NCBI GenBank assembly: GCA_963784845.1
Contig: CAWASN010000007.1
Coordinates: forward strand, 532,979-596,978
Length of the DNA stretch: 64,000 nucleotides
Direction: 5' to 3'
Source of the DNA: an uncultured Actinomycetes bacterium
Lineage (GTDB): Bacteria > Actinomycetota > Acidimicrobiia > IMCC26256 > PALSA-610
A program made the translations under genes and the position numbers. Position 1 is the first letter of the stretch, and each line of letters starts with the position of its first letter. A model generated the notes under the pieces. The model saw only the letters and a list, made by a program, of their open reading frames with translations. It had not been told where the DNA came from and searched no databases. This document shows, piece after piece, positions 45,999 through 53,784 of this stretch.

Positions 45999-46058
45999 GG
46001 CGCGGCGCTCGCAAACCTCGTCGAGGTCTGTTCACGCTCGCCGATCAAGGGCTTCCCG

Positions 46059-46104
46059 GGAGAGCGGGTGACCGGGATCGAACCGGCATGGCCAGCTTGG
46101 AAGG
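46059..46104. repeat. attL: 46 bp copy of the 3' part of tRNA-Gly plus 4 nt
   Basis: ggagagcgggtgaccgggatcgaaccggcatggccagcttggaagg is identical to 53710-53755. It diverges at 46105 (t versus c). Confidence 0.9.
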
Positions 46105-46211
46105 TCGGGCGGCTGCGCCGCCCGACCTTCTTGTGCAGACGTTTGTGCAGGTCAACGCACATATCGGTTGACCGCCCAATACCGCCCGTGCCCACCCGTG
46201 CCCGATAGTTA

Positions 46212-46490: not shown

Positions 46491-47475
46491 GCCGGTTGCG
46501 CTTAGGGGTCTAGCGGTTAGGGCGTGAGTCGGGGCTCCATCGGTTGCGCCAGTCGATGAGCTTGGCGGTGATGAGGAGCGCGGTGACGAAGCAGAGTTGC
46601 GCGTGTCGGTGTCGTGTTCGGCGGTCGGTGTTGCGGCGGAGTTGCCCGTAGTTCGACAGCCACGAGTTGGTGCCTTCGACGACCCATCGCAGTCCGAGTT
46701 CGAGTGGTCGTCTCTCGGTGGGTCCTTTGGGTTTTCGGTGTTGGATGTTCAGATCGGCGAGTCCGTAGCTGGCGAGATGCCGACGCGTTTTGGGGTAGTC
46801 GTAGCCGCGGTCGAGATGCATGGTGTCGATGTCGGCGAGCAGTCCGGCTCGTGCGACATCGTCAAGGGTTGGGCCGAGAAGGTTGAGCTCGTTGCGGTTG
46901 GCGCCGTCAATCGCCCATCCGATCGGGATGCCGTTGGCGTCGACCGCGATCGACCACTTCCAGCCGAGTTTCGCCCGGTCCGTGGGGTTGATTCCGGTGC
47001 CTTCACCACCGCAGGGCGCTTTGTGCAATGAGCCATCGAGGGCAACTTCGGTGAGGTCCAGGCCGATGATTCGGTCGTAGGCATGGATCGCGTCGACGCG
47101 CAGTTGGTCGAACACGCCGGCCGCGATCCATTCGTCGCGTCGTGATCGCAGCGTGGTGTCGGATACTTGCCGTTCGAGGATCGCTTCGACGCTGACCCAC
47201 GAGCAGCCCGTGACGAGTCGGATCAGGATCCCCCAAAAGCACAGGCGATCCGCGACTCGGGGCCGGTGACAGCCCAACGGATGATGGTCCGGAATCGGTG
47301 GGATCAGCGGTTCGATCGCTGCCCAGACGGCATCTACCACTTCGGGTTCGAGCGCGCGCATGATGACGGGGCCTCCACTGTGTCGTCGTGTTTGGGTCGC
47401 ACTCGGGATCAAACCCGAGCCAACCCGACGACCGGTGGATGGCACCTACTCGCGCGGCCCCTTAGCGCAACCGGC
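46491..47475 (-). mobile_element. IS5-family insertion sequence (DUF4096 + DDE_Tnp_1-like transposase)
   Basis: The transposase ORF is flanked by gccggttgcgcttagggg (46491-46508) and its inverted partner ccccttagcgcaaccggc (47458-47475), matching 17/18. CTTAG occurs at 46501-46505 and 47461-47465. Confidence 0.75.
46510..47361 (-). CDS. IS5 family transposase
   Basis: MRALEPEVVDAVWAAIEPLIPP...CHRPRVADRLCFWGILIRLVTGCSW (DUF4096-like HTH). DDE region: LDGSLHKAPCGGEGTGINPTDRAKLGWKWSIAVDANGIP...MHLDRGYD...VVEGTNSWL. Confidence 0.85.
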   Translation of the reverse strand: MRALEPEVVDAVWAAIEPLIPPIPDHHPLGCHRPRVADRLCFWGILIRLVTGCSWVSVEAILERQVSDTTLRSRRDEWIAAGVFDQLRVDAIHAYDRIIGLDLTEVALDGSLHKAPCGGEGTGINPTDRAKLGWKWSIAVDANGIPIGWAIDGANRNELNLLGPTLDDVARAGLLADIDTMHLDRGYDYPKTRRHLASYGLADLNIQHRKPKGPTERRPLELGLRWVVEGTNSWLSNYGQLRRNTDRRTRHRHAQLCFVTALLITAKLIDWRNRWSPDSRPNR

Positions 47476-47600: not shown

Positions 47601-47867
47601 GTGGACGAGCTCTCGACGTTGTTGGACATCGGTGCGGTGGCGGAACGTCTGTGCGTCACCGAGCGACACGTTCGTAGGTTGGTCGCCGAGCGCCGGATTC
47701 CGTACGTCAAGGTCGGCCGCTTCGTGCGCTTCGATCCCGCCGACGTCGCGGACTGGCTCACCGCGGCTCGCGTACCGCCGTGTTCACTGACGCACCCGCT
47801 GCGTATGATCGACGCGGAGCTCGACTCGGCCCGATCACGCGCCGCTGGCTCCGGATCGCGCCGCTGA
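47601..47867 (+). CDS. xis: excisionase-family (MerR-like HTH) DNA-binding protein
   Basis: LLDIGAVAERLCVTERHVRRLVAERRIPYVKVGRFVRFDPADVADWL. It lies immediately upstream of the integrase. Confidence 0.8.
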   Translation: MDELSTLLDIGAVAERLCVTERHVRRLVAERRIPYVKVGRFVRFDPADVADWLTAARVPPCSLTHPLRMIDAELDSARSRAAGSGSRR

Positions 47868-47904: not shown

Positions 47905-49035
47905 ATGAGCAGGCGCCGCACGTTCGGCTCTATTCGTACGTTGTCGTCCGGTCGCTACCAAGCGCGCTACACGTCGCCCGACGGCGTCCGCCATCGTGCG
48001 CCCCGCAGCTTCTCGACCAAAGCTGAAGCGAGTCAGTGGCTCGCGAAGATCGAGACCGAGTTCGCGAGAGGCACTTGGACCGATCCCGACGCCGGTCGCG
48101 TTTCGCTCGACGGGTACGCGCGGAGCTGGGTCGAGACCCGCGCCAACCTGCGACCCCGCACCGTCGATCTGTACGAGTCTCTGCTCGAGCACCACATCGT
48201 CCCGGCCCTCGGCGATCACGAGATCGGCACCCTCAGCGCCGGGACCGTGCGCCGTTGGTACGCGCAGCTCGTCCGGAGAAGCGGCCCGGGATCGCTGACT
48301 CCGGCCAAGAGCTACCGGCTCCTACGGACGATCCTGAACACCGCCGTTGCCGACGGCATCATCGCAAGGAATCCGTGTGCGATTGTCGGCGCGGGGATCG
48401 AACGCAGCGCCGAGCGCCCGGTCGCGACGCTGGCTCAGGTCTGGGCGTTGGCCGACGCGGTCCCGCCGCACTTCCGTGCGCTCGTCCTCACGGCCGCGTT
48501 CGGCGGCCTCCGATTCGGCGAGCTCGCGGGGCTAACGCGGGATTGCATCGACATCGCCGCCGGCACGATCACCGTCCGCCGTGCTCTCGTCCAGCGCGAC
48601 GACGGAACCCTGCAGCTCGGTCCGCCCAAGAGCGAAGCCGGCCGCCGCACGTTCACGATTCCGGCCGCGCTCGTGCCCGAGCTTGCCGCCCATCTCGACG
48701 GGTACGTCGAGCAGCGCGACGACGCGCTCGTCTTCGTCGGCGCGAAAGGCGCGAGGCTGCGCCGGTCGAACTCGTCGGCGGTTTGGAAGAAGGCGACGGA
48801 GAAGGTCGGCGTTCCCGGTCTGCGCCTCCACGACCTGCGCCACACGTGCAACACCCTCACGGCCGCGACCGGTGCGAGCACCCGCGAGCTGATGCACCGC
48901 ATGGGCCACGCCTCACCGCGCGCTGCCCTGCGCTACCAGCACGCCACGCGCGAACGCGACGAGGTGATCGCCTCCGCGCTGAGCGCCCTGATTGAGGCGG
49001 CGCCCGGGAGAGTGTCAAACGAGATAGTCGAGTGA
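47905..49035 (+). CDS. int: tyrosine-type site-specific integrase
   Basis: N-terminal SAM-like domain (YQARYTSPDG..FSTKAEASQWL). Catalytic set: GLRFGEL (R), KSEAGRRTFTIP (K), HDLRHT (HxxR), MGHAS (H), LRYQH (Y). Confidence 0.9.
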   Translation: MSRRRTFGSIRTLSSGRYQARYTSPDGVRHRAPRSFSTKAEASQWLAKIETEFARGTWTDPDAGRVSLDGYARSWVETRANLRPRTVDLYESLLEHHIVPALGDHEIGTLSAGTVRRWYAQLVRRSGPGSLTPAKSYRLLRTILNTAVADGIIARNPCAIVGAGIERSAERPVATLAQVWALADAVPPHFRALVLTAAFGGLRFGELAGLTRDCIDIAAGTITVRRALVQRDDGTLQLGPPKSEAGRRTFTIPAALVPELAAHLDGYVEQRDDALVFVGAKGARLRRSNSSAVWKKATEKVGVPGLRLHDLRHTCNTLTAATGASTRELMHRMGHASPRAALRYQHATRERDEVIASALSALIEAAPGRVSNEIVE

Positions 49036-49095
49036 CGGAGAACGGAGTCTGCAGGGCCGAGCGACTCGGGTGCCACGGCTTGTTACGGTTGAAAA

Positions 49096-50454
49096 ATGGT
49101 CGACGTTGCGATTTCGGCAAAGTACGAAACCCTCGAGCCCGGCGCCCGCATCGAGCTTTACAACGGTGCGCTCGGCTTGTCGTGGGCCGCCAACACCTTC
49201 GTGGGCACGGGATCGATCCACTTCGAGTGGCAACCATACCCACGCGTTGGTTTCAATGTCTCGGTTTCTTTGCCACTCGATGTAGGTGATGTCGGAGATC
49301 AGGTCCGCGTCGAGTTGCTCGATACGGGAGGCAGCGCCGAAGGTCGGCCTTGGCGAATCACCGACACGTTCAACGACGGCGACGAGTTGCAGCGCACGGT
49401 CGAGGGATCGATTGCCGAGGAGCTCCTCGTCGGCAACCCCGCCGCGACGGATTCGGTCATCTTTCACGTTCCAAACTTTCCCGACTATGTCGGAACGCCG
49501 GTGCAGGCAACACAGGCAGGCGGGAACACGCGGGCTGCCAGACTAACTGCAACGACAGCGCAGTGGATCGTCGAACTGGACGCTGTACCTCACGCGGGAG
49601 ATCTCGCAGCTGCGCTGACCAAGCGAAGAGGCTTCGGGATAACGCACGTAGGTCGAATCCGCCGCTTGGACGGTGCCGCAGTTCCGTACGCCGACGTTGA
49701 AGCGATGTGCAGTCAGCTGTACTGGTGGCTTTCCCTACTGAGAAGTGAGCGAACCGGCCCGATTCTGGTGATGGGAGTTCACGAGGGCGTGACGGTATGG
49801 GAGACATGGCAATCTCCGACAGTGTCTCCGTGGCGCGGGCGGTGGAGTTGGTTGCCTCGATTTCCAATCGAAGTGGACGGGCATCCTGTTTCTGTCAGCG
49901 GCGGTGACACGCTCCGGTGTCTGAGCGACTCGTGGGCAAACCCGGACTACCAACGGGCGATCACGCGAGCGATCGATTGGTACACGCAGAGCGTTTCAAG
50001 CGGCTATGCGGCAACGACGGTCATTCTCGCGCAGGCCGGTTTAGAACTGATGTCGTGGCTGCGACTCGTGCGTGACATGGGCATCAGTGAGGATGGGTTC
50101 AGCAAGTTGAGCGCTGCTGATTCGCTTCGGCTCGCTCTGAGCGTCGCCGAAATCAACACAGACGTTCCCGCCGCCGCACCTCAACTGTTCGCCGCAGCAG
50201 AGCCAGGCCAGGGTCTGCAGCGACTAGACGGACCTGCTTCGATCACTGAGATTCGCAATGGCGCGGTGCATCCGAAGCCATTGCAACGGTTCGCGGATCC
50301 GATGGCCGCGATTCAAGGGGGTCTGCTGGCTATTCAGTTCCTTGAACTCATGTTGCTTCATCGCCTGGGCTACACCGGCAGCGCTTACGACAGGATTACG
50401 TGGGAAGAGCCGGAGCCCGTACCATGGGCGCCTGCAACCGTGGTTCAGGGTTGA
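49096..50454 (+). CDS. hypothetical 452 aa protein with C-terminal HEPN-like (Rx4H) helical domain; candidate ApeA-like defence RNase
   Basis: Intact ORF 61 nt downstream of int in a lower-GC region. The C-terminal helices read AITRAIDWYTQS, TTVILAQAGLELMSWLRLV, SAADSLRLALSVAEI, then ITEIRNGAVHPK (R at 50254, H at 50269), then AAIQGGLLAIQFLELMLLHRL. Confidence 0.6.
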   Translation: MVDVAISAKYETLEPGARIELYNGALGLSWAANTFVGTGSIHFEWQPYPRVGFNVSVSLPLDVGDVGDQVRVELLDTGGSAEGRPWRITDTFNDGDELQRTVEGSIAEELLVGNPAATDSVIFHVPNFPDYVGTPVQATQAGGNTRAARLTATTAQWIVELDAVPHAGDLAAALTKRRGFGITHVGRIRRLDGAAVPYADVEAMCSQLYWWLSLLRSERTGPILVMGVHEGVTVWETWQSPTVSPWRGRWSWLPRFPIEVDGHPVSVSGGDTLRCLSDSWANPDYQRAITRAIDWYTQSVSSGYAATTVILAQAGLELMSWLRLVRDMGISEDGFSKLSAADSLRLALSVAEINTDVPAAAPQLFAAAEPGQGLQRLDGPASITEIRNGAVHPKPLQRFADPMAAIQGGLLAIQFLELMLLHRLGYTGSAYDRITWEEPEPVPWAPATVVQG

Positions 50455-50599
50455 CGTACGTGATGCTCGACGTTGTTGCTGTGCCGCTCAGTGAGCTGAC
50501 TCCCACGCCACGGCGCTCGGGGCAGCTGTGGCGCCGGGCTGTCCGGAGAGCTGAAGCCTTCGGGAAGTAGACGCGCCATCGCCGCGACCGGAAAGCTCG

Positions 50600-51646
50600 C
50601 TACGTTTCGAGTTGCCTCGTGCAATAGGCACATGTTTCCGCGTCATGCCGGCGCGGTGCGTCGGGCGGTTCGTGGATGTAGAGCTGTTCTCTTCCCTCTC
50701 GGTCGCGCTTTGGCGGCACGAGCGCCTCGTCGAAGACGCCCTCGGTGCCCTCGAAGAGATCGCCTTGTCCGGAGTCCCGAGTCTCGATCCTCTTGCGTAC
50801 GGCTCGCGCTGCTTCTGCCATCGTCGGGAACTCTTCGGCGGCGCGGTCGTAGAGGTGAGTCATGATGTCGTTGCCGGCCTGAGAATCCGTGGCGAAGATC
50901 ATGCGATACAGCGGATGATTCGCTTCGTTACGGATCTCGAGCTGGTGAGTCCATCGATAGCCAAGTTCATGCTCGAGCCGCCACCGCATTAGTTCGACGT
51001 ACTCCGCACGCGTGGCCGTCGGCGTGATCTCGTCGTCGAGCTTGGCCTGCCAGATTGCGTGCCAATCCGGCGTTCCGAACATCGCGGTGATCGCAGCGTT
51101 GTCGGCGTCACGTACGACCCCGCTCGTCGGTAGCAAGCGCGCGAAGAGCGCGTCAGGGAAGAGCATCCAGAGCTCAACTTTCGTCTTCGCCTTCGGGCCT
51201 TTGTGTTCGGCGAGGGCCCCGAGCGTCGCCCACGTGTAGTGCGGACCGTTGGGGTCGATGAACGCAAAGGTCGGTGCCCAGGCGGCGTCGACCTTGCGGA
51301 GATCCGCAAGGGCGGTACGGATGCTCTCGTTGCTGTCGCCTGGATACACGATGAGATCGCGGTCCGGGTACTCCGCGTTGAGAGCGGTCTTCAGTTTCGT
51401 TGCGTTGGGCTCGAGCTCGAAGAAGCGGAGATGCGTGAACGGTGGGTCGTCGACGTTGCGCACGATTCGCGCCGATCGATCAATCGGATTCTTCGTGACA
51501 CGGTCGTAGTTCTCGGGCTCGCCACCGAACAGATCCAGGTACACCGTCTTCGTAGCCTTGAGCTTTGTCGTGGTTGTGAACGTGTTCAGATACCGCTCGA
51601 GCAAATCGAGCTTGTACTTGGTCCAGAACCCCCACGGCCGTGACAC
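50600..51646 (-). CDS. tcmP: three-Cys-motif partner protein TcmP
   Basis: GTG 51646 lies 6 nt after the DUF5131 stop. The N-terminus is WGFWTKYKLDLLERYLNTFTTTT..KTVYLDLFGGEPEN. Later motifs are FFELEPN, IVYPGDSNESIRTALADL and TFAFIDPNGP. The family was recognised from memory of its typical N-terminus and its pairing with DUF5131. Confidence 0.7.
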   Translation of the reverse strand: MSRPWGFWTKYKLDLLERYLNTFTTTTKLKATKTVYLDLFGGEPENYDRVTKNPIDRSARIVRNVDDPPFTHLRFFELEPNATKLKTALNAEYPDRDLIVYPGDSNESIRTALADLRKVDAAWAPTFAFIDPNGPHYTWATLGALAEHKGPKAKTKVELWMLFPDALFARLLPTSGVVRDADNAAITAMFGTPDWHAIWQAKLDDEITPTATRAEYVELMRWRLEHELGYRWTHQLEIRNEANHPLYRMIFATDSQAGNDIMTHLYDRAAEEFPTMAEAARAVRKRIETRDSGQGDLFEGTEGVFDEALVPPKRDREGREQLYIHEPPDAPRRHDAETCAYCTRQLET

Positions 51647-51652
51647 GCAAGC

Positions 51653-52400
51653 TCACGCTACGGCGCGTTCGGGCATCTCGTCGTAGACGGCGCCGTCGAG
51701 ACTGCGCCCGTGCGCCTTTGGCGTGCGTCCTCCCCATTGCTTGAAGAAGAACGGGACGCTCGGCAACTGCGCACTCATCGCGGATCGATCGGACCCACGA
51801 AGGATCCATCGGCCGCGCATTGAACCCGCTTTCGCCGCCGGCAATAACCCAATGAATTGAGGCTAAATCAAGGTCGTCGAGCGGGCCGAGGAGTGGCTCG
51901 CAAGAGAGGAAACGCACGGCCGCGGGGACCTGAGCCAGGTGTTCGATGCGGAATGTGTACTGAGCGTTCTCGACGCTCACACCCATCCACACGTTGTCCG
52001 GCCACTCCAGCCGGTCGGCGAGTTGAGCAAGCCGTTTCGAACGCTTGGTGAGGACTTGGTACTGGTGCTGCGGTGTTTCCGCCATGACGTCGAAGACCTG
52101 TCGAATGAAGTCAACCGTTACCTTCGGGTGGAACAGATCGCTCATGCTGTTCACGAATATCGTGCGTGGCGTCGACCAACTCCTTGGGATCGACAACGCG
52201 TCTTCATGCATCGTGAGCGCGAAACCGGGGCCGGACGTTCGCGGCGCTGCCGTCGTTCTGGTACTTCGGTTGCCCCATCGCCTTGAGCCTGCCGCGAGCG
52301 TCATGGCGTAGCAGTGATCACAGCCTGGGCTTGTGCGGTCGCAGCCCGTGGTCGGGTTCCACGTTGCCTCGGTCCATTCGATACCGCTCTTGTCGCCCAT
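51653..52400 (-). pseudogene. DUF5131 / phage Gp37-Gp68 family protein (three-Cys motif); compensated double frameshift near 52240-52295 and a further frameshift near 51790
   Basis: GAGGGGGA precedes ATG 52400. SGIEWTEATWNPTTGCDRTSPGCDHCYA, RTIFVNSMSDLFH, YQVLTKR, NVWMGVSVE, RFLSCEPLLGPL, HWVIAGGESG. FFFKQWGG follows in ORF 51653..51844. Confidence 0.8.
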
Positions 52401-52677
52401 GCAGCGATCCCCCTCAACGCGTCGACTTCCAGCGAAGCTTGAACCACATCCACGTCGCCATCAACAACTTCGTCGATGATGACTGCAGGGTGTGACAGCG
52501 TTGCACGATCCGACAGCGTTCCGCGAAACTCGCGCCCCGATTGCTCACTCTGGGTCGCCGACGATGTTTGTCGGTTCATTATGAGGAGCGTCTCCACGAG
52601 AATCTCGACGAACCTGTCCGTCGTATCCTGGCCACATCGCACCGGGTGTATCCGAATCCGTTCCACCAGGAGGGACC

Positions 52678-52934
52678 GTGACGAAGCCACCTCGCCTCGA
52701 CCTGTGGGCCGACTTCAACAACGAGGACGACGACGGCTTCGGTTGGTCGGCGCTCCATCACGCGAGCGATCCGGCGCTCGTGACTCCGGGGCGCGGGTGA
52801 TCGCCGGTTCTGAGCGGGCATGGGCCGTCGCCGAAATCATCGCCGTCGACGACGACGGCATGGTTCACTTTCGTGTGCTCCCGCGCAACGATCCCGACTC
52901 CCAGCGAGTCTTGGCGGACGCTTCGAATGGCTGA
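52678..52934 (+). pseudogene. small hypothetical protein (about 85 aa) translationally coupled to the HicB-like gene; frameshift near 52795
   Basis: CAGGAGGGA precedes GTG 52678. VTKPPRLDLWADFNNEDDDGFGWSALHHASDPALVTPGR, then in the next frame VIAGSERAWAVAEIIAVDDDGMVHFRVLPRN..SNG*. The stop overlaps ATG 52927 by 8 nt. Confidence 0.45.
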
Positions 52935-53125
52935 CGACGCGCGTTCGTTCCGCGCCATCTACGAGCACGATGCAGCCGACGGATCGTGGCTCGTGCGCGT
53001 CGAAAGCCTCGACGGCTGCCACACCTACGGCCGCACGAAAGTGGAAGCAGCAGGCCGGATCGAAGAAGCCCTCGCCGCCTGGCTCGACAAAGGACCCGAG
53101 CGAGTTCACGCTCTCGCACGCCTGA
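52927..53125 (+). CDS. HicB-like antitoxin-fold protein (UPF0150-type N-terminal domain); 3' end assumes a one-base shift near 53090
   Basis: MADDARSFRAIYEHDAADGSWLVRVESLDGCHTYGRTKVEAAGRIEEALAAWLDK matches the HicB N-terminal pattern (Y.V.+E.D.DG.W.A.V..L.GC.T.G.T..EA...I.EAL). The shifted reading DPSEFTLSHA* ends at 53125. The unshifted frame runs on to 53304 over the opposite-strand gene. Confidence 0.55.
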
Positions 53126-53149
53126 AGCCCAGACGGGGCGGGCTACAGC

Positions 53150-53557
53150 GACTCGATCACCTCTCACGCCAAGAGCAATTGCCTCGGAGCCGAGCAGGAA
53201 CTCGTCGTCTTGAGGATCGAAGTAGACACCGTCGGCGAGGTCAGCGAGTGAGGCGGCCGCGGAGAACGCCGAGGCCAACTCGTCGACTGCGCCCGACCAC
53301 GTGAATGTGGCGCACAAGTCGCGGCCGCCGATTCGTTGGACGGCGTGCGGGTACGCGGCCGTGATCGACGAAGCATCGCCCAACGAGAACTCGAATCCGG
53401 TTGCTGCTCCGCCAAAGGTCACGGGCACGAAACCGCGGTCCGCAGCAGGATCAAAAGCCTCGGCGAGAACGGTCGGGAAGTTGCTCGCGTCGAGACGCTC
53501 CTGCCACTTCTCTCGACCGGGCACCTCTGCGCTTGCGACAAATACGTGCAGCTCCAT
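53150..53557 (-). CDS. hypothetical protein (3' end uncertain)
   Basis: ATG 53557 MELHVFVASAEVPGREKWQERLDASNFPTVLAEAFDPAADRGFVPVTFGG...GVYFDPQDDEFLLGSEAIALG. The downstream part of the open frame turns Arg-rich, so the true stop is unclear. Confidence 0.4.
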
Positions 53558-53645: not shown

Positions 53646-53709
53646 TGCTCGCCTAGACCGTGCAGACGTTCGTCAAGGTCTGCACACGTGCCTTGACCAG
53701 GACTTTCTC

Positions 53710-53755
53710 GGAGAGCGGGTGACCGGGATCGAACCGGCATGGCCAGCTTGGAAGG
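53710..53755. repeat. attR: 46 bp core repeat inside tRNA-Gly
   Basis: Identical to 46059-46104. Confidence 0.9.
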
Positions 53756-53784
53756 CTGGGGCTCTGCCATTGAGCTACACCCGC
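53714..53784 (-). tRNA. tRNA-Gly (anticodon UCC)
   Basis: The reverse complement GCGGGTGTAGCTCAATGGCAGAGCCCCAGCCTTCCAAGCTGGCCATGCCGGTTCGATCCCGGTCACCCGCT folds as a 71 nt cloverleaf. It has a 7 bp acceptor stem, anticodon loop CTTCCAA and T-loop TTCGATC. CCA is not encoded. Confidence 0.92.

Follow-up and report, generated by a model that had tools for sequence, protein, structure and literature searches.

A YopA-family gene in a small tRNA-Gly element encodes a candidate HEPN ribonuclease effector

The YopA-like gene and the element that carries it

The stretch of DNA analyzed here (the window; 64,000 nucleotides of contig CAWASN010000007.1, from an uncultured Actinomycetes bacterium) contains a small element integrated at a tRNA gene, in which the integrase gene is followed directly by an open reading frame (ORF) of the YopA family, the subject of this report. 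The YopA-like ORF (49096..50454, + strand, from the ORF list) is intact, has an ATG start, and spans 452 amino acid codons plus a stop codon. The gene immediately upstream on the same strand codes for a tyrosine integrase (47905..49035, +; Pfam Phage_integrase, E 7e-17) with SAM-like and arm-binding domains, and a gap of 60 nt separates the integrase stop from the YopA-like start. The initial annotation, made from the sequence alone, had described an intact frame shortly after the integrase stop and with a lower G+C content than its surroundings, and both points hold: the YopA-like ORF has a G+C content of 60.6% (66% at third codon positions [GC3]), compared to 69.5% (GC3 85%) for the integrase gene and ∼69% for the flanking chromosome. 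Simple scans found no promoter or terminator sites around the YopA-like gene.

The element is ∼7.6 kb long with a G+C content of 63.9%, and it is integrated at tRNA-Gly(TCC) (53713..53784, −; ARAGORN and repeat search). It is bounded by a 69-nt direct repeat, the distal attachment (att) copy lying at 46048..46116 and pairing with the tRNA-proximal copy at 53699-53767; in the repeat search the two copies are 87% identical with a long identical core, and they duplicate the 3′ part of the tRNA gene. Upstream of the integrase is an excisionase-like gene (47601..47867, +; Pfam HTH_17, E 3.4e-10), and an IS4/5-type transposase gene (46510-47445) sits between this and the distal att repeat. The genes downstream of the YopA-like ORF are described below.

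Membership in the YopA family

The initial annotation regarded the protein as an orphan and recognized no other family, a view that does not survive a wider search. Sequence comparison places the 452-amino acid protein in a large uncharacterized family, YopA, first named in the Bacillus prophage SPbeta. Precomputed Pfam matches to YopA_M (PF26308) and YopA_C (PF27216) are present on the window protein and on all 41 homologues recovered at 26 to 57% identity by word-indexed search, and these matches are unmarked (E ≤ 1e-5) in the contig look-ups where marks are shown. Local scans of the window protein with Pfam, PHROGs, NCBIfam, and PADLOC gave no match; the local Pfam copy apparently does not hold the YopA_M and YopA_C models, as even SPbeta YopA is unmatched there. 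In phage genomes, tblastn returned a single gene, the yopA gene of Bacillus phage SPbeta (SPBc2), whose product is 22.5% identical to the window protein over residues 3 to 434 (96% of the query; E 4e-20).

The family is large: a profile search of 1.84 billion representatives recovered 3,693 clusters at an E-value cutoff of 0.001, of which 1,921 pass the stricter cutoff of 1e-30; the clusters are represented at 50% identity, and the larger figure is a lower bound. Nearly all of the best 150 clusters have proteins of 430 to 470 amino acids that match end to end and share the same architecture. Close relatives are found in metagenome-assembled genomes (MAGs) of Acidimicrobiia and other Actinomycetota (a scan of genome contigs with a single peptide pattern returned 10 loci), and plasmids of cyanobacteria and Methylophaga carry more distant ones. 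Overall, the family ranges over Actinomycetota, Bacillus prophages, cyanobacterial plasmids, and one gammaproteobacterial plasmid, and its members are publicly annotated as “hypothetical protein” throughout.

Conservation of a candidate active site

The candidate catalytic motif is R387-N388-G-A-V-H392-P393 (50254..50274, +), an Rx4H motif of the HEPN type singled out by its conservation and by the structural model. The peptide ITEIRNGAVHPK, in which the initial annotation had noticed an R-N-x3-H arrangement, is encoded in the YopA-like ORF with the arginine codon at 50254 and the histidine codon at 50269 (codons verified). By itself such a motif has little meaning, because 79% of shuffles of the YopA-like protein contain an Rx4-6H motif (6.6% contain the stricter R[NDHQ]x3H), and it is conservation that gives it significance. 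R387 and H392 are present in all 168 full-length homologues examined, SPbeta YopA included, N388 is present in 167 (with one D), and P393 in 148. An Rx4-6H motif with a polar residue (N, D, or H) after the arginine, as is characteristic of HEPN domains, is therefore found in all 168, and the conservation of the arginine and histidine on which the initial annotation had staked its proposal is borne out. Across an alignment of 146 sequences in which mean column identity is 21%, only the columns of R387 and H392 are invariant.

A second candidate component of the site is E317, the putative HEPN helix-2 acidic residue, which lies in an AQAGLE motif (50029..50046, +) identified from conservation and the model and is kept in 166 of the 168 homologues. 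In 35 close homologues, R387, N388, H392, and P393 and the A312-Q-A-G-x-E317 motif are all invariant. Near the C terminus there is a V-P-W tail motif (residues 442 to 444; 50419..50427, +), with P443 in 166 and W444 in 163 of the 168. The window copy retains every conserved residue of the family.

Outside the HEPN-like domain there is a second set of near-invariant residues, formed by FHxPNFP (residues 123 to 129) and ITHVG (183-185, with T183 and H184; 49642-49650). The former, read as FHVPNFP in the window protein (49462..49482, +), is in the N-terminal domain and was recognized by its conservation; N127 is invariant in an alignment of 108 sequences, and H124 and P129 show ≥90% conservation among the 35 close homologues. 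The middle domain has conserved ITHVG and LS..R..W/GP motifs. The FHxPNFP and ITHVG residues may make up a sensor pocket or another functional site.

Predicted structure

An AlphaFold2 (AF2) model of the full-length protein, built with the family alignment, has a mean predicted local distance difference test (pLDDT) score of 93.8 and a predicted template modeling (pTM) score of 0.92, and a separate model of the C-terminal domain has a pLDDT of 94.4. Three domains are predicted. The first is an all-beta N-terminal domain with 11 strands and no helices (residues ∼1 to 165; 49096..49590, +), a putative sensor part. It has no Pfam match, Apea_NTD1 included, and in a Foldseek search of the full-length model against PDB it drew weak matches to Hcp, tail-tube, and Dit-like folds (E 0.005-0.1); nothing in that search was significant, and these beta-fold matches are not built upon here.

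The second is an alpha/beta domain, assigned from AF2 secondary structure (residues ∼166 to 265; 49591..49890, +), that likely corresponds at least partly to Pfam YopA_M. Residues ∼165 to 216 (49588-49743) give UTRA-type matches below threshold, with NCBIfam PhnF at E 0.24 and Pfam UTRA at E 0.2 for one member and at E 0.025 for a subgroup consensus. None of these is significant, and they hint at a small-molecule-binding fold.

The third is a helical, HEPN-like domain in both the full-length and the domain model (residues ∼270 to 430; 49903..50385, +) and corresponds to Pfam YopA_C. Its predicted helices span residues 283 to 301, 305 to 327, 379 to 391, and 402 to 423, with an insert of short helices at residues 332 to 368. 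In the AF2 model, R387 and N388 close the helix at 379 to 391, H392 opens the loop that follows, the long helix at 402 to 423 comes next, and E317 is within the long helix at 305 to 327. The initial annotation had placed the motif ahead of the final long helix of a helical C-terminal part, and this agrees with the prediction, in which the last ∼180 residues are helical and the motif is so positioned. In HEPN domains as described in PMC3710099, the arginine is followed by a polar residue, helix 2 bears a conserved acidic residue (for which E317 is the candidate here), and a variable insert separates helices 2 and 3. The modeled YopA C-terminal domain matches this canonical four-helix layout; the arrangement of helices around the motif is also as described there, within what is a predicted structure.

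Similarity of YopA_C to HEPN domains

Direct similarity to known HEPN families comes no higher than near threshold. When 108 diverse YopA members were compared with Pfam, HEPN_Apea was the sole family matched by more than one member (8 of 108 at E ≤ 1, best E 0.0014), and there was one further single match, to HEPN_RiboL-PSP. The C-terminal domains of 24 members gave HEPN_Apea at E 0.073 and DUF4145, another HEPN family, at E 0.27. A PADLOC scan of the 108 members gave single weak matches only, the two best being CARF_HEPN and RTasHEPN. Consensus sequences of the family were also searched against Pfam. The C-terminal consensus matched HEPN_Apea at E 2.9e-4 for the whole family and at E 1.7e-4 for the largest subgroup (21.7 to 22.5 bits); of the other subgroup consensuses, one matched at E 0.022 and three had no match. 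The HEPN_Apea match spans consensus residues 89 to 161 and profile positions 64 to 133 of 136, which is the half of the profile with the R-N-x3-H motif and the last helix.

Structure comparison gives a similar picture. Among the top 50 Foldseek matches to the C-terminal model are 11 HEPN chains from eight entries, namely, Csm6′ (8pe3; template modeling [TM] score 0.41-0.43), ST0689 (1wol), 4nqf, 1wty, a HEPN toxin (7bxo_F), 2q00, AbiV (9bj7), and MtlR (6kcr). The TM-scores of HEPN structures against the model are 0.35 to 0.56 and the matches are non-significant; the structural search proposed in the initial annotation thus yielded no significant match to any HEPN structure in PDB or BFVD. Taken at the level of sequence, the weak matches of YopA_C converge on HEPN families and are not scattered.

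YopA_C is probably a HEPN-superfamily domain, with the Apea-like HEPN domains as its nearest described relatives. The initial proposal of a C-terminal HEPN ribonuclease (RNase) domain is supported indirectly by the near-invariant R, N, H, and E residues in a HEPN layout, and less so by profile and structure matches, which come only near threshold. We regard it as unlikely that the domain is something other than a HEPN RNase, that is, another helical fold whose R/N/H/E site binds or processes a nucleotide signal or DNA, or a non-catalytic binding module. Such a view accords with the sub-threshold level of all direct HEPN similarity, with four-helix bundles being a common fold, and with the second conserved site (H124, N127, and T183-H184) in the N-terminal and middle domains. 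However, R-N-x3-H at the junction of helix 3 and the following loop together with a helix-2 acidic residue is the defining HEPN arrangement (PMC3710099), the motif residues are the most conserved in the YopA family, and the weak matches that exist point toward HEPN families.

Genomic contexts of YopA homologues

About 25 distinct loci of YopA homologues were compared for context. A tyrosine integrase lies within 8 kb of the homologue in nine of them, and no conserved adjacent partner gene is seen in this set. At one locus, the homologue directly follows a type I restriction-modification (R-M) system and adjoins a RepSA-integrase gene (L002), and in another it follows a type I R-M system and GmrSD (L021). 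Elsewhere it is found among resolvase, M78 peptidase, SHOCT, and IS110 genes (L001), near Phd/ParE, WhiB, and HTH_17 genes (L020), near an integrase and an HTH_17 gene (L023 and L025), or adjoining an integrase (L008). Homologues on Methylophaga, Crinalium, and Oscillatoria plasmids are next to tyrosine recombinases, and in SPbeta yopA is located between the yonT type I toxin gene, yopB (helix-turn-helix), yopC (RES domain), and yopH (Sie). The initial annotation had held that homologues outside mobile or defense surroundings would speak against its proposal; the contexts are mostly mobile or defense.

The YopA homologues on the Oscillatoria plasmid (L029, 6938-8246) and the Crinalium plasmid (L030, 6083-7389) are each annotated as two adjacent coding sequences, and these split copies are probably frameshifted or decaying.

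Two cyanobacterial plasmids share a distinctive arrangement. Planktothrix agardhii plasmid p4 (L026, 2304-12177) and Nostoc sp. UHCC 0926 plasmid pn2 (L027, 2307-10574) each have, on the same strand, a DNA methyltransferase gene, a small ORF, the YopA-like gene, and an SNF2 helicase gene, with an additional sigma-70-like gene in Planktothrix. The methyltransferase and helicase are each ∼1,100 amino acids, and after the Nostoc cluster come genes for an EVE-domain protein, a deoxynucleoside kinase, and viperin. These clusters may constitute an uncharacterized restriction-like system with a YopA-type effector.

The prevalence of mobile contexts bears on what the protein does. An active HEPN RNase could serve competition between mobile elements or the stabilization of its own element, through addiction or the exclusion of rival prophages, integrative and conjugative elements, and plasmids, in place of general anti-phage defense. 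Nearly every informative context is indeed a mobile element and not a chromosomal defense island, as illustrated by the integrase neighbors, the RepSA-integrase element, the plasmids, and the SPbeta accessory region with its Sie gene. Several loci, however, are in or beside R-M systems, GmrSD, or viperin, the usual signature of anti-phage genes, and the two roles overlap in practice. A role in element competition in place of general defense seems improbable.

The least probable of the alternatives is that the YopA-like protein works within a restriction-like system of several genes, together with a methyltransferase, a small protein, and an SNF2 helicase, and that the window copy is a detached and possibly non-functional module of it. 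This accords with the tight same-strand packing between the large methyltransferase and helicase genes in Planktothrix and Nostoc and with the observation that R-M operons can contain ApeA-type HEPN genes (PMC3710099). Against it, the arrangement occurs at 2 of about 25 loci; such neighbors are missing from most copies, SPbeta yopA and the window copy among them, and the window copy has lost none of the conserved residues.

Other cargo of the tRNA-Gly element

Convergent to the YopA-like gene is a gene for TcmP (50600-51646, −; NCBIfam TIGR04474, E 2.9e-45), next to a frameshifted DUF5131 (Gp37/Gp68-like) gene (51653-52400, −; Pfam DUF5131). The pair (50600-52400) matches the PADLOC candidates PDC-M41A/B and PDC-M30B. 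One frame of the DUF5131 gene, a 306-amino acid ORF (51480-52400), matches the profile to about position 230, and the conserved C-terminal end, PFFFKQWGG (profile positions 190 to 243 of 243, E 8e-7), lies in a second frame, within ORF 51653-51844. The split marks the gene as a pseudogene or else reflects an error of assembly; once repaired, the gene would stop 7 nt ahead of the TcmP start. Neither TcmP nor DUF5131 was found beside YopA homologues at 30 other loci, and a functional link between the YopA-like gene and the adjoining pair was rejected for this lack of co-occurrence.

Near the tRNA-proximal end of the element is an ORF with weak similarity to HicB/UPF0150 (52927-53304, +; E 0.0025-0.007, under the Pfam cutoffs), for which no HicA-like partner was recognized. 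The element is thus essentially a small carrier of defense-type cargo, with the YopA-like gene, the DUF5131-TcmP pair, and the HicB-like gene. The cargo region at 49000-52700 has a G+C content of ∼60 to 61%, whereas the integrase gene is host-like in composition (69.5%, GC3 85%), which suggests that the cargo was acquired later than the integration module.

Proposed function and mechanism

By analogy with characterized HEPN enzymes, the YopA-like protein is reasonably likely to be a HEPN RNase effector that works alone and carries a new type of sensor module, acting as a single-gene defense or exclusion effector. Action as a single gene is proposed because the gene is cargo of a 7.6-kb element and has no conserved partner gene. 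In a three-domain protein of this type, the N-terminal beta and middle alpha/beta domains would probably be the sensor and regulatory module, and the C-terminal four-helix HEPN-type domain would carry the candidate active site of R387, N388, and H392, with E317 as a possible helper.

The steps of a plausible mechanism are drawn from the established behavior of HEPN enzymes. Dimerization via the HEPN-type domains would bring two R-N-x3-H motifs together into one composite site, possibly with the help of E317, and the N-terminal beta and middle domains would hold the enzyme inactive until they bind an infection-derived signal. Once activated, the enzyme would cleave RNA without metal ions, most plausibly tRNA anticodon loops or mRNA, and the infected cell would be arrested. 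As cargo of the element, the gene would then provide defense or exclusion on its own. The analysis itself establishes the family membership, the residue conservation, the layout of the predicted fold, and the genomic contexts; RNase activity, dimerization, the trigger, and a defense role are all proposed on these grounds of analogy, and the HEPN homology of YopA_C, near threshold as it is, is suggested by sequence. The middle domain, with its non-significant UTRA/PhnF-like matches, or the FHxPNFP site could be the ligand- or protein-binding site, which is a lead rather than a result.

Several results weigh against this reading. The best consensus score against HEPN_Apea (22.5 bits) is under the Pfam gathering score of 24.4, and the window protein itself is not matched by HEPN_Apea in the Pfam scan, nor by any PADLOC defense model. 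Foldseek gave no significant HEPN match, the best E value being 0.78 in PDB and 0.2 in BFVD (the latter uninformative), and PDB sequence searches with the protein and three family profiles returned only spurious matches to Hsp70, leucine-rich repeat kinase, and Acr proteins. Mobile or defense genes are absent from three of the examined homologue contexts, and literature searches on the two YopA Pfam domains, on YopA in connection with HEPN, and on the yopA, yopB, and yopC genes turned up no paper about what YopA does.

A broader proposal is put forward more tentatively, as possible but short of probable, namely that the YopA family is a widespread unrecognized single-gene abortive-infection system in which a HEPN RNase is controlled by a new two-domain sensor; in the models, this sensor would be composed of a beta-barrel-like domain and an alpha/beta domain that possibly binds a ligand. 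The family is absent from PADLOC-DB v2.0.0. If the proposal is correct, several thousand sequence clusters would gain a HEPN RNase effector function.

Comparison with known systems

HEPN effectors encoded by one gene are already well known. Among them, ApeA, a single-gene abortive-infection tRNA anticodon nuclease (Pfam HEPN_Apea, PF18739), is the one to which the initial annotation likened the protein. Both are single proteins in which a C-terminal HEPN-type domain with inserts follows a large non-catalytic N-terminal region. Among Pfam models, HEPN_Apea comes nearest to YopA_C, and occurrence in R-M operons is shared with ApeA-type genes, which may be embedded in them (PMC3710099). They differ in build: the cryo-electron microscopy study describes ApeA, a protein of ∼580 amino acids, as mainly helical, its N-terminal and Mid domains being catenin-like and PafA-like, and with the HEPN region of Ec2ApeA at residues 335 to 583, whereas YopA proteins are ∼450 amino acids and are predicted to be all beta in the N-terminal domain and alpha/beta in the middle domain. 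Apea_NTD1 matches none of the 108 members or four N-terminal consensus sequences, and the PADLOC ApeA model matches neither the 108 members nor the window protein (which has no PADLOC match at E ≤ 1). Membership in the ApeA family was rejected on these grounds, with the HEPN_Apea score below the cutoff and a beta-rich N terminus. What remains of the initial comparison is a resemblance in single-gene design, a sensor region followed by a C-terminal HEPN-type effector, together with distant homology between the effector domains. In ApeA the activating small ligand binds away from the catalytic site, and YopA could plausibly be activated in the same way.

Two other HEPN nucleases are instructive. 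HepS of Gifsy-1 is a HEPN-only anticodon nuclease of <250 amino acids activated by a phage tail-tip peptide, and DARNA/PD-T7-3, in which the HEPN domain is N-terminal and the C-terminal domain helical, is an anticodon nuclease activated by SSB-bound single-stranded DNA. As is proposed for the YopA-like gene, both act as HEPN effectors encoded by one gene, lie in prophages or islands, and need no partner gene, and both are activated by phage products. Neither has the YopA N-terminal domains, however, and the PADLOC models, including PD-T7-3, are unmatched by YopA proteins; identity with HepS or DARNA was rejected for these differences in architecture. A HEPN-MNT (HepT/MntA) toxin-antitoxin system was also rejected, there being no nucleotidyltransferase neighbor (the integrase is upstream and the convergent TcmP gene downstream) and a length of 452 amino acids compared to ∼130. 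If the proposed function is correct, the YopA sensor domains, unlike those of ApeA, HepS, and DARNA, could reveal a new infection signal.

The founding member of the family is YopA of SPbeta in Bacillus subtilis 168. It and the window protein are of the same length class (438 and 452 amino acids) and have the same domain order and the same R-N-x3-H-P and ..L-E..-W motifs, and both genes are accessory genes of integrated mobile elements. They are only 22.5% identical, though, and one is in a Firmicute prophage and the other in a high-G+C genome with its closest homologues in Acidimicrobiia MAGs. The presence of yopA in SPbeta makes the idea testable in a standard laboratory strain.

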